Origin: a virus
Length of the DNA stretch: 64,000 nt
Reading direction: 5' to 3' (one strand)
Virus record (IMG/VR): IMGVR_UViG_3300029705_000088
In this document: positions 175-63,890 of the stretch, piece after piece
Layout of the letters: each line of letters opens with the position of its first letter
Position numbering within the stretch: the first letter of the stretch is position 1
Program-made: the position numbers and the translations under genes
The notes under the pieces: model-generated
What the model was told of the DNA's origin: nothing
The model's input: the letters and a program-made list of their open reading frames with translations, nothing else
Database searches by the model: none

Positions 175-215
175 TTGACTTTTTTAAAAAAATATTATAT
201 AATATATATACAAAA
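175..215 (+). promoter_or_regulatory. consensus sigma70-type promoter (TTGACT-17-TATAAT)
   Basis: -35 at 175-180, -10 at 198-203. Confidence 0.5.
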
Positions 216-257
216 TAAAAAAACAATATAAATTATGAAAGGTTAAGGTATTTAATT

Positions 258-695
258 ATGGAAAAGAAGATTGTTAAGAGAGATTTCTTTGAGGCTTTCA
301 AGGCTATGGCTCTGGATGGCAACATGCACATTGAGGATTTCGCAGAGGGTGTAACCGATGAAATGGTAGTTGAATTCTGCGATAACGAGATTGCGTTGCT
401 TGATAAGAAGGCTGCCAAGGCTAAGGAGACCGCGGCAAAGAAGAAGACTGAGGACCCGCTGACTGCGGTAATTAAGGAAGTTCTTACTAACGAGTTTGAG
501 GCTATCGCAGATATCGCAGCTCGCATTGAAGGTGAGGATATTACTGTAAGCAAGGTTTCTTATCGTCTGAGCCAGCTTGTTAAGGCAGGTTTTGCTGAGA
601 AGGAAGAAATTTCTGTTAAGGATGGCGATGGTAAGTCCAGACGTATTATGGCTTATCGTATCGCAGTTGAAGGCGAAACTCCCACTGAGCAGTAA
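258..695 (+). CDS. hypothetical acidic protein
   Basis: Complete ORF with an upstream consensus promoter and RBS, followed by a terminator hairpin at 711-730. No motif recognised. Confidence 0.5.
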   Translation: MEKKIVKRDFFEAFKAMALDGNMHIEDFAEGVTDEMVVEFCDNEIALLDKKAAKAKETAAKKKTEDPLTAVIKEVLTNEFEAIADIAARIEGEDITVSKVSYRLSQLVKAGFAEKEEISVKDGDGKSRRIMAYRIAVEGETPTEQ

Positions 696-710
696 TAAAT
701 AAAACAATTA

Positions 711-730
711 AGCCCGCAAGGGCTTTTTTG
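711..730 (+). terminator. rho-independent terminator
   Basis: agcccgcaagggct hairpin plus T-tract. Confidence 0.55.
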
Positions 731-744
731 TTTTATAATAAAAT

Positions 745-785
745 TTGACAAAAAGAAAAATATAGTGTATAATATAATAAAGGAG
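745..785 (+). promoter_or_regulatory. sigma70-type promoter (TTGACA-17-TGtTATAAT)
   Basis: -35 at 745-750, extended -10 at 766-773. Confidence 0.5.
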
Positions 786-1020
786 AGTGAGAACTATGAA
801 ATATTGTATTTCCAATAGATAGTCAAGACAGGTTTTAGAAAAAGCCGATGAAATTAAAGTAAGATTAAATGACATCGCAAGATTAAAGAATTATATTGAA
901 GATTATCCAGATAAATCTTTTATATTAGAAATTCCAAAAAATTGTTCCAATAGAGATTGTGAATGGTCATTATTCCAAAAATATGCGGACACTGCTAATT
1001 TTAAGTTAGCAATTAAAGAT

Positions 1021-1599
1021 ATGTATTTAGCAGAATATTGCCGCAATTACAATATTCCTTTCTATTGGGATTATCCTGTATTTACTTATTATGAATTGCG
1101 TAGCTTAATAGCACAAAAACCGTGCTATATTATCCTTGAGGCGCCATTATCTTTTGATTTGGAAAATGTAAAAAAGATTACTGATATCCCAATTAGAATA
1201 TTTGCTAACATTGCTTATGATAGTTATATTCCAAAAGAAAATGGTATTTATGGCAGTTGGATACGCCCAGAAGATGTAAAGAATTATGAAAAATATGTTG
1301 ATACTTTAGAATTTTTTACACGAGATGATATAGAAAAAGAAGCTACATTATTCCACATTTATAAAGACAATGAATCATATCCTGGAAATTTAAATCTTTT
1401 ATTTACAAATTTAAACTTTAATATTGATAATAGATTAATTCCAGAAGACTTGGCAATTAGAAGAATGAATTGCGGCCAGCGCTGTATGTCGCATAATACT
1501 TGTCATCATTGTGAAACTGTGTTTAAATACGCAGAATTGGTTAAAAAAATTCATAATGTTAAAGTGAATATGGATATAGAGAAAATGAAAGAAAATTAA
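1021..1599 (+). CDS. hypothetical protein with C-terminal Cys/His cluster (CGQRC..HNTCHHC)
   Basis: ORF with a promoter-like element at about 745-785. Putative metal-binding cluster at the C-terminus. Confidence 0.45.
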   Translation: MYLAEYCRNYNIPFYWDYPVFTYYELRSLIAQKPCYIILEAPLSFDLENVKKITDIPIRIFANIAYDSYIPKENGIYGSWIRPEDVKNYEKYVDTLEFFTRDDIEKEATLFHIYKDNESYPGNLNLLFTNLNFNIDNRLIPEDLAIRRMNCGQRCMSHNTCHHCETVFKYAELVKKIHNVKVNMDIEKMKEN

Positions 1600-1640
1600 T
1601 TGATTTTATATAAAAAATATGATATAATATTTATATAAAA
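1600..1640 (+). promoter_or_regulatory. conserved phage promoter (TTGATT-17-TGATATAAT)
   Basis: -35 at 1600-1605, -10 at 1623-1628. Confidence 0.55.
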
Positions 1641-1665
1641 TAAAAATAATGAAAATGGTGAGTAT

Positions 1666-2658
1666 ATGGAAGTATTAAATAAACAAGATTATCGTTTAAT
1701 TACGCATTTACTTAAAATGTCTGATAAAGTTCTATTGAAAACTATGATGACATTCCTTCAAAAAGAATATAAACAAGTCATTGCGACAAAAGAATATGTA
1801 TATGCGGTTGGAGATATCCCGGTCGCACTGGTAGCACATTTAGATACGGTTTATAGCACCCAGCCCTCTGATATTTATTATGATTCGCGCAAAGGTGTAT
1901 TGTGGAGTCCGCAGGGACTTGGTGCCGATGATAGGGCTGGTGTATTTGCTATTTTAAAAATTGTTCGTCAAGGCTACAAGCCGCACGTTATTTTTACCAT
2001 GGATGAAGAGGTCGGTGGTAAAGGTGCTACGGCTTTAATTACTGAACATCCAAAGCCTTTTGCGGAAATGAAATATATTATTGAGCTTGACCGCAGAGGA
2101 GTAGTTGATTGCGTATTTTATGATTGCGATAATCAGTTATTTATCCAGTATGTTGAGTCTTTTGGATTTGTAGAAGCTTGGGGAAGTTTTTCTGATATTA
2201 GTGAGATTTGTCCTGCTTGGAAAATTGCTGGTGTAAATCTTTCTATCGGTTATCAAGATGAACATTCTTATAGTGAAACTTTACACATTCATCCAATGTA
2301 TAAAACTATTAATCGTGTTATTAATATGCTTAAAGATATTAATAATGTAATTATCCCATATGATTATATTCCAAATCAGTATTCTTATGGCAAATTAGCA
2401 ACATTGGCTATGGCAACTAAAAATTTTGATTTTGCTGATGAATGGGTAAATTGCGCAAAATGTAAGAAAACATTTCTTGAATATGAATTGTTTCCTATTC
2501 ATACATCAAAAACTGAAACAAAAATGTTTTGTCCTGATTGCGTTTCTAATAATGTGAGATGGTGTGCGGAGTGTGGTGAACCTTTTGAAATTGATGGAAA
2601 AAATCCGAATGAGATTAAATGCTTTATCTGTCGCAAGGAGAAGAAAAAGAATGGCTAA
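1666..2658 (+). CDS. M20/M28-like metallopeptidase-domain protein with C-terminal zinc ribbon
   Basis: HLDTV and GADDRAGV motifs are typical of Zn peptidases. Two CxxC pairs sit at the C-terminus. Consensus promoter at 1600-1640. Confidence 0.45.
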   Translation: MEVLNKQDYRLITHLLKMSDKVLLKTMMTFLQKEYKQVIATKEYVYAVGDIPVALVAHLDTVYSTQPSDIYYDSRKGVLWSPQGLGADDRAGVFAILKIVRQGYKPHVIFTMDEEVGGKGATALITEHPKPFAEMKYIIELDRRGVVDCVFYDCDNQLFIQYVESFGFVEAWGSFSDISEICPAWKIAGVNLSIGYQDEHSYSETLHIHPMYKTINRVINMLKDINNVIIPYDYIPNQYSYGKLATLAMATKNFDFADEWVNCAKCKKTFLEYELFPIHTSKTETKMFCPDCVSNNVRWCAECGEPFEIDGKNPNEIKCFICRKEKKKNG

Positions 2659-62115: not shown

Positions 62116-62139
62116 AAAAAAGAGAAGGAGGAAATAGGT

Positions 62140-63069
62140 ATGAAATATTTAAATCAAACCCCAACACAATGTATTTTAACAGATAGTACCTGCTATAAAG
62201 GGACAAAACCTATGACTGTTTTAGGTGTATTATGGCATAGTACTGGCGCAAATAATCCTACTTTAAAAAGATATGTTTAGCCAAGTAAAACTGACCCTAA
62301 ATATGAAGAATTAATGACAATGATTGGAACTAATAAATATAATAATAGTTATAATCAAATTGATATTTAGTCTGGTTTAAATGCTTGGATTGGTAAATTA
62401 GCAGATGGAAGTGTTACCACTTTATAGACTTTACCTTGGACTTATCGTCCATGGGGTTGCGGCAGTGGTGAAAATGGTTCATGTAATAATGGATGGATTC
62501 AATTTGAAATTTGTGAAGATGATTTAACAAATAAAGAATATTTTGATACAGTATATAAAGAAGCTTGTGAATTAACAGCTTATTTATGCAAAACATTTAA
62601 TATAGACCCGCATGGTTATGTTGAAGTTAATGGGAAAAAAATTCCTACAATTCTTTGTCATAAAGATGCCCATGCTCTTGGAATGGGCAATAATCATGGA
62701 GATGTAATGCACTGGTTTCCAAAATATGGAAAAAATATGGAAACAGTTAAAAATGATGTACAATCTATTTTAAATTCAGTACAACCTGAAATTTAGCAAC
62801 CGCAACCAGACCCAATTCCCTCTACACCAGTCACTTTACCAAATCAATCCAATAGTTTAACACAAGAATAGTTTAATAAAATGATGAATAATTATCTTGT
62901 TAATTTAGCTAAATAGCCACCAAATAGTTGGTCTGAAGAAGCGCGAAAATGGTGTGAGGAAAATGGTATTATTAAAGGTGATATGACAGGTAATGGTATG
63001 TATCGTAAATTTTTAACAAGAGAAGAAGCCGCTACTTTAATTTATAGATTACATGGGCAAGAAAAATAA
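62140..63069 (+). CDS. N-acetylmuramoyl-L-alanine amidase (Amidase_2/PGRP-type) endolysin, TAG-recoded
   Basis: TKPMTVLGVLWHSTGANNP ... ILCHKDAHALGMG..HGD matches the Zn-amidase_2 core. About 6 in-frame TAG. RBS agaaggagg. Confidence 0.5.
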
Positions 63070-63382
63070 TAAAAATCAAAAAAAAGAATTTTCTAAAGTG
63101 CTATTAATCCAAGAGTCAGCATTATTATGGATATTGACCTTGTCTTTTATAGGATTAGCATTTTATTGTATTTTTTGCGGTTATATGGGTTCTTTACCTT
63201 GGTTAGCGGCAATGATAAGTTTTCCGTGGACCGCTTATGGAGTAAGTCAAGTATTCTATTATAAAAAAAGTACAGTAGAAAATTCTAAAGATGGTATAAA
63301 GTTTGAATCTGTTATGGCAGAAGTAAATGCTATATATGGTAATTCTGTTCCACAAATTGATTGGGGAGTAAATGAAGAATAG
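63053..63382 (+). CDS. holin-like membrane protein
   Basis: Two TM helices, a charged N-terminus, and position next to the amidase. Confidence 0.45.
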   Translation: MGKKNNKNQKKEFSKVLLIQESALLWILTLSFIGLAFYCIFCGYMGSLPWLAAMISFPWTAYGVSQVFYYKKSTVENSKDGIKFESVMAEVNAIYGNSVPQIDWGVNEE

Positions 63383-63463
63383 TAGAATATAAATTCTAAT
63401 ATTGTTACAGAAGAAAATTTAAATGATTACATTCCAGATATTAATTATGGAATTTAATATAAG

Positions 63464-63500
63464 GGCTAAAGATTAAAATCTTTAGCCCCATTTTTATTTT
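63464..63500 (+). terminator. rho-independent terminator
   Basis: gggctaaagatt-aa-aatctttagccc hairpin plus T-tract. Confidence 0.55.
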
Positions 63501-63503
63501 TAT

Positions 63504-63540
63504 TGACTTTTATTAAAATATATGATATAATAAAAATAAA
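63504..63540 (+). promoter_or_regulatory. conserved phage promoter (16-bp spacer)
   Basis: TTGACT at 63504, TATAAT at 63526. Confidence 0.5.
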
Positions 63541-63554
63541 AAAGGAGAAAATAA

Positions 63555-63840
63555 AATGAATATTAATCATTTAAATATTTCTGATGGCGATACTTTATTA
63601 ATTTCTTTTGATTAGAATATAGATAGAGAAACAGCTAATGATATTATGAAACGTCTTGAAGATTTATTTCCTTCAATTAATTTAATGGCTATTCGTAATG
63701 GATGCATTAATAATATATCTATTATTCATAATGATAATCAATTTTTATAGACATCTTTAACATCTTATCCATATAATAATTGCGATGGTGTCGCTATTAC
63801 AGCAAATAAATTAGAAGATATTACATTAAGTACTTTGTAA
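63555..63840 (+). CDS. hypothetical small protein, TAG-recoded
   Basis: ATG after promoter 63504-63540. Coherent with 2 in-frame TAG. Confidence 0.3.
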
Positions 63841-63847
63841 GATTTAC

Positions 63848-63890
63848 TTGACAATATAAAAAAAATATGATATAATATATATATATAAAA
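63848..63890 (+). promoter_or_regulatory. conserved phage promoter
   Basis: TTGACA at 63848, TATAAT at 63871. Confidence 0.55.

Follow-up and report, generated by a model that had tools for sequence, protein, structure and literature searches.

Predicted host-type promoters and Y-RNA-like genes with a covarying closing helix in an apparently TAG-recoded phage

A stretch of 64,000 nucleotides from IMG/VR virus record IMGVR_UViG_3300029705_000088 (the window, by which we mean the whole of the DNA analysed) carries many near-identical copies of a short promoter-like module. A preliminary description of this DNA had regarded them as sigma-70-type promoters with a conserved leader stem. The question that the locus raises is what kind of promoter this would be, which RNA polymerase would read it, and what the stem belongs to. 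Our joint best explanation, to which we assign a probability of roughly 0.75, is that the modules are host-type promoters and that the leader stem is the closing helix of Y-RNA-like genes, which lie 2-15 kb 5' of a gene for a predicted Ro60-like protein (21804-23321, plus strand) and on its strand.

The pattern TTGAYW-N15-19-TATAAT was matched 25 times in the window compared to 1.9 matches expected, with 24 of the matches on the plus strand and none of 100 shuffles reaching 25. With TTGAAA also permitted as the -35 element, 30 copies were obtained between positions 175 and 63876, all of them on the plus strand, which bears out the number and the orientation given earlier. TTGA and TATAAT are invariant in all 30 and scores range from 10 to 12 of 12, the full score being reached at 10018, 14407, 17929, 19095, 21695 and 63848 (copies are named here by their first position). 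The spacer is 17 bp in every copy; its length had been correctly described and its count, 27 of 30, was too low. TGn precedes TATAAT in 28 copies, as the extended -10 previously noted, and is lacking at 175 and 745. The string TATGnTATAATAT has 27 exact plus-strand occurrences and TATGnTATAAT likewise occurs 27 times, while the -35 element is mostly TTGATT, not TTGACA. A per-position profile showed conservation from about -45 to about +20, which includes a ATCTTAAT-type extension at about -38 to -45, an A-tract in the spacer and 13 nucleotides (nt) 3' of the -10, where most copies carry the block ATATATAGAAAAT (copies 745 and 63503 do not). The 52-nt consensus of the preliminary description is found verbatim at 6757 and 15227. 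Since the window is A+T-rich (24-38% G+C), a generic sigma-70 scan was non-discriminating (136 found versus 117 expected) and only the full module discriminates.

Placement agrees with anatomy. All 30 copies lie outside plausible open reading frames (ORFs), even with TAG read through, and each has the orientation of the gene or RNA that follows. Many genes of both strands contain TAG in frame (e.g. 4153-6771, 16540-17928, 24030-30679 on the minus strand, and 61438-63069), and on this pattern we read the phage genome as TAG-recoded on both strands. A Shine-Dalgarno sequence and a start codon follow within 50 nt of the predicted start site in 17 copies (at 18-48 nt in 16 of them), and at about ten copies an RNA gene begins 4-27 nt past it. 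The A-rich start AGAAAAUAAGAAA is shared by the transcripts of RNA genes and by mRNAs, in which it runs into the Shine-Dalgarno sequence; its presence on both kinds of transcript fits a role in the promoter or the initially transcribed region and not a translation signal.

The overlap of upstream genes with the -35 extension, which had been ascribed to many copies, is real and concerns about nine of the 30, where the upstream stop codon is within the -35 region or next to it. A TGA stop is contained in the TTGA of four copies: 6768-6809 (stop of ORF 5896-6771), 14407-14448 (stop of ORF 13550-14410), 33205-33246 and 56128-56169, the last of which stands 5' of a kinase/phosphoesterase/flotillin-like operon. 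Copy 1600-1641 abuts the stop codon at 1597-1599 and precedes a peptidase-like ORF (1666-2658), and 17929-17970 abuts the stop of ORF 16540-17928. Directly 5' of seven copies there is an intrinsic-terminator-like hairpin. These are the divergent copy 745-786 (TTGACA-17-TATAAT, 5' of an ORF at about 796-1599), 38680-38721 (13 nt 3' of hairpin 38635-38666), 41199-41240 (abutting hairpin 41165-41198), 46907-46948 (2 nt 3' of hairpin 46882-46904 and 5' of a Thg1-like operon), 49775-49816 (overlapping hairpin 49745-49776, 5' of a nicotinamide adenine dinucleotide (NAD) salvage operon), 55118-55159 (overlapping hairpin 55083-55119) and 63503-63544 (5' of ORF 63556-63840).

Tandem copies 84-218 bp apart are found at 6768/6915/7126, 9873/10018, 17929/18013/18231 and 41199/41295. 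Their intervals are without a recognisable gene, except for 6915-7126 (the RNA gene Y1, described below) and 9873-10018 (tRNA-Lys), and may be either very short transcripts or duplicated cassettes. The first of the tandem copies, 6768, would give a short non-coding transcript only; the next, 6915-6956, would drive Y1, and 7126-7167 a G+C-rich non-coding stretch of 730 nt and tRNA-Leu(UAG). The gene of tRNA-Lys lies 20 nt downstream of 9873-9914, and 10018-10059 is followed by ORF 10088-10312 and tRNAs. Copy 18013-18054 stands 5' of a hairpin (18059-18097) and tRNA-Thr, 18231-18272 stands 5' of ORF 18310-18663, and 41295-41336 heads the operon 41356-46883, with cREC, RNase T-like, RNA ligase and band-7 genes. 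Among the remaining copies, 175-216 (TTGACT-17-TATAAT) precedes ORF 258-695; 7984-8025, immediately after a tRNA, precedes ORF 8044-8328; 8800-8841 precedes a sub-threshold tRNA-like element and another G+C-rich non-coding stretch; and 15238-15279 precedes ORF 15302-15511, then Y7 and tRNA-Ala. Copies 14407, 19095-19136 and 19452-19493 would each drive a Y-like gene and then a tRNA. Copy 21695-21736 is the promoter of the Ro-like gene, 32874-32915 lies at the divergent junction with a minus-strand block and 5' of ORF 32978-33208, 59328-59369 has a divergent spacer and lies 5' of a PhoH/PIN operon, and the target gene of 63848-63889 is beyond the window.

The same module is found in related phages. 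The extended consensus is common to 163 distinct promoters in related-phage loci, where the Ro-like protein is 45-72% identical, and in 15 relatives an orthologous promoter stands 89-128 nt 5' of the Ro-like gene, with TTGA, the A-tract and TATAAT invariant and the flanks diverged. The closest relative among the loci fetched first had at most about 70% nucleotide identity, and a megablast search of 12 kb against cultured phages gave no match; a close relative (locus L120, 73-92% identical) was found later via protein look-up. Its promoters are at orthologous positions and are the best-conserved short stretches (87-93%). Together, anatomy, placement and orthologous copies fit the sigma-70/sigma-A identity that had been proposed. 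A Firmicutes-type host, proposed at the same time, also fits. The TATG before the -10 matches the -16 element TRTG that Voskuil and Chambliss in 1998 reportedly described for Gram-positive promoters, the Shine-Dalgarno sites are strong, and the closest cultured carriers of the Ro-like protein are Bacillus phages. Exact 24-mer matches were found on phage-sized contigs, mostly in metagenome-assembled genomes binned as Bacillota, with obvious mis-binnings included, which makes them soft host evidence, and also in a Clostridioides difficile plasmid record of 132 kb. A homologous Y-like RNA of Bacillus phage Tsamsa follows a plain TTGACA-17-TATAAT promoter. On this indirect evidence the phage likely infects Bacillota, and the best reading of the module, with its predicted start sites, is a host sigma-A/sigma-70-type promoter class in a TAG-recoded phage, which is ordinary in kind.

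The early promoters of phages T4, T5 and SPO1 are primary-sigma phage promoters with an extended -10. The set in the window resembles such promoters in its TTGAca -35 element, 17-bp spacer, TRTG-preceded TGnTATAAT, A/T-rich flanks and many near-identical strong copies, placed in the early regions and in one orientation. It differs from them in being unusually uniform, down to the A-tract, the upstream extension and the 13 nt downstream, in a -35 element that is mostly TTGATT, in that about one third of the copies would drive RNA genes, and in that its start sites are predicted.

Two of the earlier claims do not find support. Every gene or small operon was said to be a cassette of its own; the multi-gene stretches 1600-6768, 33205-38680, 41295-46907 and 49775-55118 (4-5.6 kb) are free of internal copies and hold up to ten genes, which indicates operons of up to 5-6 kb and not single-gene cassettes. 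Transcription by the host RNA polymerase throughout is likewise not what the module indicates, since no copy is found in the minus-strand block of tail-fibre-like genes at 23.4-32.75 kb. A second motif, TTTTTATATATTWAAG, stands immediately 5' of the ribosome-binding site of TAG-rich tail-fibre-like genes that are without the main promoter, in two exact copies only (16511-16526, plus strand, and 32749-32764, minus strand), with a looser variant at about 28080-28106 on the minus strand, 5' of the minus-strand gene at 28065. As a second (late) promoter class it is a candidate only, two or three copies being too few to call.

The uniformity of the module might also have another origin, namely that the cassettes double as recombination points for swaps of gene modules and that homogenisation explains the conserved spacer and flanks. 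A precedent is PeSL, the composite early promoter/stem-loop cassettes of T4-like phages (PMC2839356, PMC4122927). Identical stretches of 42-52 bp are repeated many times in the window, the seven hairpin-preceded copies are terminator/promoter composites, and in a comparison with L120 the promoters and tRNAs are conserved and the stretches that separate them replaced. For instance, window 20274-21690 is unmatched in L120, which has a methylase there instead, a GIY-YIG gene lies 3' of L120's ortholog of 19095, and a single L120 promoter aligns with six window promoters at 87-93%. As in PeSL, small repeated units of terminator and early promoter stand between gene modules, and in this one comparison the replaced segments are bounded by cassettes; unlike PeSL, the hairpin is present at only 7 of 30 copies, the host lineage differs, and the recombination role is here only a proposal. 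The comparison comes from one close genome pair, and the persistence of the consensus among phages with proteins only 45-72% identical points to selection on function. We therefore regard a recombination role of this kind as possible, with the odds against it.

What, then, is the leader stem? Judged by pattern and predicted folding, it is the helix that closes each of at least 11 small Y-RNA-like genes (5' AGAY-N-ACAGCAA ... RUCU(U/A)G 3'), which are confined to a tRNA island at 6.9-19.6 kb and interleaved with 23 tRNA genes (7.9-20.3 kb, including a CUA suppressor). The pattern AGAY-N3-7-(A/U)CAGCAA ... RUCU(U/A)G yields ten plus-strand elements in the window, and an eleventh is a variant. 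In RNAfold predictions the ends of each element close a helix of 7-9 bp, ACAGCAA (with the variants UCAGCAA and CCGCAA) is left unpaired, and the 3' end is (U/A)G. All six stem pairs quoted in the preliminary description were recovered within a few nt of their positions; the extension to most transcripts fails, as the stem follows five of the 30 promoters (6915, 14407, 18013, 19095 and 19452). Nor does the stem belong to mRNA leaders in general or stand out as an RNase III site, being the terminal helix of Y-like genes in the tRNA island only; an RNase III site was rejected because helices of only 7-9 bp with an invariant unpaired motif are atypical for that enzyme.

Three of the elements, Y1 (6961-7101), Y6 (15096-15223) and Y7 (15523-15639), have the permuted tRNA-like domain of the YrlA type, made up of T arm, loop-closed acceptor-like hairpin and D arm; elements of many relatives have it too. 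Y1, placed in an 18-member alignment as well as folded with RNAfold, scores 34.5 bits with the Rfam YrlA model (gathering threshold 69) and 91.5 bits with our own model R1. Y6 scores 77.3 bits and its L120 ortholog has a compensated stem; Y7 (95.1 bits) has tRNA-Ala 4 nt 3' of it. The short copies are without the tRNA-like domain. Among them, Y3 (13091-13185, 34.5 bits) follows immediately after tRNA-Ile(UAU), and Y4 (14455-14530, 36.8 bits) lies between promoter 14407 and tRNA-Asp, with a gap of 5 nt. The minimal element Y8 (19142-19194, AGAUUU-UAACAGCAAU ... AAAUCUUG, 23.6 bits) lies between promoter 19095 and tRNA(CUA). Y9 (19360-19437, UAGACCUU ... AAGGUCUAG, 28 bits) has an L120 ortholog with a compensated stem, as does Y10 (19498-19567, 27.9 bits), which lies between promoter 19452 and tRNA-Leu(UAA) and whose compensation includes the -1/+1 pair. 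Y5 (14888-15051), immediately after tRNA-Pro, has a long insert within UAGAC ... GUCUAG and was missed by the model. The closing helix and UCAGCAA of Y2 (10818-10928, 34.3 bits) surround a real tRNA-Ile(GAU) at 10842-10914, with tRNA-Asn 7 nt 3', and the variant Y11 (9497-9603, AAACGCAU-ACAGCAAU ... AUGUGUUUUG, 27.6 bits), immediately after tRNA-Leu(CAA), encloses a weak tRNA-like element. All 11 are on the plus strand. The hairpin AAGAUUU ... AAAUCUUG at 18059-18097 (plus strand), which was among the quoted stems, is kept in L120, has no ACAGCAA, and was not scored as a family member. Eight of the 11 copies abut tRNAs with gaps of 3-9 nt and no terminator between, so that co-transcription and release by tRNA-processing enzymes are likely.

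Two further observations concern the same architecture. The caged tRNA is recurrent, in that a Y-type closing helix also brackets tRNA-Thr(GGU) in a related locus (L018, 7836-7953), as it does tRNA-Ile(GAU) in the window. At 15905-16032 there is a tRNA-shaped element with acceptor GGGGACU/AGUCCCC-ACCA and D and T arms, in which the anticodon region is replaced by GAGUCUUG-UUUA-AGUCUUGUCAGCAAU; in this insert the two Y-stem motifs have changed places, the 3' one coming first, much as if a Y-like RNA had been circularly permuted, and similar sequence occurs in loci L015 and L053.

In order to assess whether these elements form a family, we considered 80 viral loci fetched with the Ro-like protein, in which motif-plus-stem instances number 111 on the strand of the gene versus 5 on the opposite strand. 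In the covariation test on 86 distinct instances, the 3' strand was taken as the nearest RUCU(U/A)G and pairing information was unused. The observed share of cells that pair was 79.9%, compared to 67% for shuffles (none of 500 reached the observed value) and 28-51% for a slid partner, with double changes at the four helix positions -1, 4, 5 and 6. The stems of the L120 orthologs differ from those of the window and are nevertheless compensated, including a swap from A-U to U-A at -1/+1. The alignment of the 18 long members contains the closing stem, T arm, closed acceptor-like hairpin and D arm, with covariation in 18 of 23 pairs. The covariance model derived from it finds seven non-training copies in the window, all on the plus strand, and in the Ro loci its 44 hits share the strand of the Ro-like gene without exception; its E-values are rough, and paralogous copies within one genome are non-independent observations. 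We also scanned viral contigs with the 17-nt 5' motif alone, independently of the protein, and fetched a few kb around the matches. Of the 68 instances with a paired 3' strand, 28 had a Ro-like gene in the fetched DNA, in each case on the strand of the motif, compared to 2 of the 58 instances without a partner. At the level of sequence comparison, the Y-like elements thus form a real RNA family, whose closing helix covaries and which is linked to the Ro-like gene and to tRNAs.

The protein itself carries the Pfam domains DUF2828 and DUF7788. Its AlphaFold2 model, with a predicted local distance difference test (pLDDT) score of 77, consists of a HEAT-repeat ring followed by a vWA domain. In a structure search of the PDB with this model, the top 11 matches were all Ro60/TROVE proteins (Thermus phage phiLo, Xenopus, human), with E-values from 5e-6 to 3e-4 and template modelling (TM) scores of 0.47-0.59. 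NCBIfam gave no hit, and because the sequence searches of PDB, NCBIfam and Pfam TROVE fail, the Ro60 identity rests on the predicted fold; we accordingly call the product of 21804-23321 a predicted Ro60-like protein. By tblastn its family is present in 701 cultured phages, and some GenBank records name it 'Ro-like RNA binding protein'. Carriers of this DUF2828 branch include Tsamsa-like Bacillus phages, Listeria phage A511, Enterococcus phage EFDG1, Felix O1-like coliphages, cluster L mycobacteriophages, and Campylobacter and Vibrio phages. The 5' untranslated region of the Ro-like gene has a hairpin CCCUCUU-GUCC-AAGAGGG (21757-21778), kept with compensatory changes in ten relatives and L120, which may be an autoregulatory site. 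In L120 the gene is split by a 1.1-kb insertion (8847-9970) with a GIY-YIG/NUMOD3 homing-endonuclease gene, probably an intron.

Related RNAs were found with the covariance model and the pattern beside the homologous Ro-like gene in all five cultured phages examined. Tsamsa has three copies, one directly 3' of its TTGACA-17-TATAAT promoter; homologous RNAs were also found in EFDG1, mycobacteriophage Faith1 and a Felix O1-like coliphage, and weakly in A511. Between these lineages the helix varies (AGAC/GUCU, GGAC/GUCC, AGAAC/GUUCU, GGAAUC/GAUUCC), while ACAGCAA and the 3' (U/A)G are constant, as expected for a protein-recognition element beside a structural helix. The Rfam YrlA model gives these copies at most 44.9 bits or misses them, and the cultured-phage records that were opened have no annotation of a Y-like RNA. 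No description of the family was found in Rfam 15 or in the searchable literature, which did not extend to the Chen et al. 2014 supplement or the 2020 Annual Review and in which 'DUF2828' leads to unrelated papers only.

Known bacterial and phage Y RNAs are YrlA (Rfam RF02553; Chen et al. 2014, PMC4201824), which mimics tRNA (PMC4201824), and Yrl1 and Yrl2 of Thermus phage phiLo, whose Ro60 binds Y-like RNAs encoded 5' of its gene (PMC12135203). Like these, the elements of the window lie near a Ro60-type gene on the same strand, and their 5' and 3' ends pair beside a conserved unpaired motif; the long copies have the T arm, closed acceptor-like hairpin and D arm of YrlA, and the short copies lack them, as YrlB and Yrl do. 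They are unlike known Y RNAs in that the motif is ACAGCAA, not GNCGAAN0-1G/CGAA (bacteria) or GGUCCGA (animals), in scoring below the Rfam gathering threshold, and in having as putative partner the DUF2828 branch and not Pfam TROVE. They also number at least 11 in the genome compared to the usual 1-4, are interleaved and apparently co-transcribed with tRNAs, and in one case enclose a genuine tRNA. By analogy with these systems, we infer that the Y-like RNAs bind the Ro60-like protein of the phage.

The adjacency to tRNAs allows a different interpretation, in which the AGAC ... ACAGCAA ... GUCUUG helices serve to process or stabilise tRNA precursors, for instance as a nuclease entry site or a 5' protective stem, and are not partners of the Ro-like protein. 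The short gaps at eight of the 11 copies would agree with it, as would the unit of a Y-like element followed by tRNA(CUA) or tRNA-Leu(UAA), which recurs in many relatives, the real tRNA bracketed by Y2 and the overlap of the L018 copy with tRNA-Thr. Independently of either interpretation, small non-tRNA RNAs in a phage tRNA array have a precedent in the stable species 1 and 2 RNAs that the tRNA cluster of phage T4 yields. The release by tRNA-processing enzymes that is inferred here would be a further likeness to them; the likeness is one of description, and T4, unlike this phage, is without a Ro-like gene. What speaks against a role in tRNA precursors is that loci without any tRNA (L058, L066 and L089) still keep two or three copies that hug the Ro-like gene, and that the RNA motif alone led to a Ro-like gene in 41% versus 3% of instances, always on the same strand. 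In addition, three copies have the YrlA architecture of a tRNA mimic, and protein-binding sites typically combine an invariant unpaired motif, here ACAGCAA, with a helix that covaries freely. We consider the precursor interpretation unlikely.

The reading as host-type promoters with Y-RNA-like genes could correspond to the following course of events. The 30-copy module would be the standard early/middle promoter, read early by the host RNA polymerase with its primary sigma factor, and transcription would start at the A/G of ATATAT-AG-AAAAU, after an A+T-rich discriminator. It would drive plus-strand operons of one to ten genes, with about ten copies driving RNA genes and seven acting as composite terminator/promoter cassettes. 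Y-like RNAs would be transcribed from the module or together with tRNAs, and would be released when RNase P and tRNA 3'-end processing act on the tRNAs next to them. They might then bind the phage Ro60-like ring, with ACAGCAA and the helix as the recognition element, and gate or tether the ring during infection, e.g. to the host PNPase, in analogy to Ro60/Y RNA/PNPase complexes; tethering to PNPase has been described for phiLo Ro60 (PMC12135203) and Deinococcus. The tRNA-like domains and enclosed tRNAs could link the particle to tRNA surveillance or repair, together with the ligase, Thg1 and kinase-phosphatase of the phage.

Whether the host enzyme is the one that reads the module is a question in itself. 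A phage-encoded sigma factor or RNA polymerase of sigma-70-like specificity, in place of the host holoenzyme, would account for a conservation from about -45 to +20 that exceeds the needs of the host enzyme; the related phage Tsamsa has a sigma factor near its tRNA island, and the genome was seen only in part. All canonical primary-sigma elements are, however, at or near consensus with optimal spacing, and the genes needed first (RNA repair, NAD salvage, tRNAs) rely on the module. Moreover, a scan of about 50 ORFs of the window turned up neither a sigma factor nor an RNA polymerase subunit, and the motif is common to phages of quite different G+C content. We consider such a phage factor highly improbable. 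Still less credible, and dropped in favour of the YrlA architecture, is a view of Y1, Y6 and Y7 as circularly permuted tRNA genes whose products mature by circularisation, like those of the red alga Cyanidioschyzon merolae: an RNA ligase is encoded by the phage and the T arm does precede the D arm, but the acceptor-like stem is loop-closed, there is no anticodon arm, the helix runs on into the ACAGCAA closing stem, and the layout is that of YrlA.

Several points weigh against our joint explanation. On the promoter side, the conserved spacer and downstream block exceed what sigma-A recognition needs, so that an extra factor or sequence homogenisation may contribute to their conservation. Only 64 kb of a genome of probably 140-190 kb were seen, and Tsamsa encodes its own sigma factor. 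Promoter start sites, RNA ends and processing are all deduced from sequence. On the RNA side, Rfam at its gathering threshold reports only tRNAs in the window, and RF02553 (YrlA) reaches a best score of 34.5 bits, about half of its threshold of 69. The published Ro-binding motif GNCGAAN0-1G or CGAA is not in the Y-like RNAs, which have ACAGCAA(U/A) in its place, and many copies abut tRNAs. As for the protein, it has no PDB sequence match, Pfam assigns it to DUF2828 and not to TROVE, and the fold similarity is moderate (TM 0.47-0.59 for a model of pLDDT 77).

The surroundings of these elements offer some additional observations. The window, as part of a large phage genome, holds an RNA-repair and NAD-salvage set: RNA ligase, a Thg1-like enzyme, kinase, phosphoesterases, an RNase T-like exonuclease, a cyclic-phosphate receiver domain and PhoH/PIN, together with macro domain, NADAR, NAPRTase, NAD synthase and nicotinamidase genes. 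An MVP-shoulder/SPFH-like protein of 820 amino acids (ORF 33278-35740, with one TAG), whose gene lies 3' of promoter 33205, shares the early region with the Ro-like gene, and two more band-7/flotillin-like proteins are encoded there (45474-46457 and 57752-59215); the pairing of a TROVE fold with a vault-protein domain recalls eukaryotic vault particles. The suppressor tRNA(CUA) at 19204-19298 is a type II tRNA of 95 nt with a long variable arm, compared to the type I CUA tRNAs of 71-76 nt in relatives, which hints at differing amino-acid assignments between them. Three stretches without an ORF (7160-7895, 8330-8800 and 8935-9411), two of them just 3' of promoter copies, have a G+C content well above the window mean. 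They had no Rfam match in lenient scans and no match in the fetched loci, and their folding z-scores of only -1.0 to -1.75 are not exceptional; they may be large non-coding RNAs. Elsewhere in the RNA island (8867-8929, 12899-13008 and 13440-13500) there are tRNA-like elements below threshold and a weak 'drum RNA' match (29 versus 43 bits). Relatives carry a tmRNA, and in the same kind of island Listeria phage A511 (L243, 2507-3058) has a sub-threshold ROOL match (87.5 versus 99.1 bits), which lies between its tRNAs and gp57, the Ro-like gene.

Ordinary in itself, the set of promoters is useful as a 30-fold replicated definition of the early promoter in an uncultured TAG-recoded lineage and as a marker of its operon boundaries. 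More valuable is the new reading of the leader stem, since the RNA family concerned escapes Rfam 15 at the curated threshold. In its widest form, the proposal is that ACAGCAA-type RNAs are an unrecognised, phylum-spanning class of Y RNA, cognate to the DUF2828 Ro60-like branch of the 701 cultured phages, which in this gut/rumen-type lineage was expanded to at least 11 copies and wired into tRNA operons, tRNA-holding forms included; to this wider proposal we give slightly less than even odds. If it is true, it would suggest that during infection a ribonucleoprotein of the phage keeps watch over tRNAs or protects them. If the RNAs bind the Ro-like protein, the function of a widespread phage gene labelled 'DUF2828 / RNA-binding protein' would become directly testable, and its links to tRNAs, RNA repair enzymes and host exoribonucleases would then be open to study in Bacillus, Listeria, Enterococcus, E. 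coli and Mycobacterium systems.

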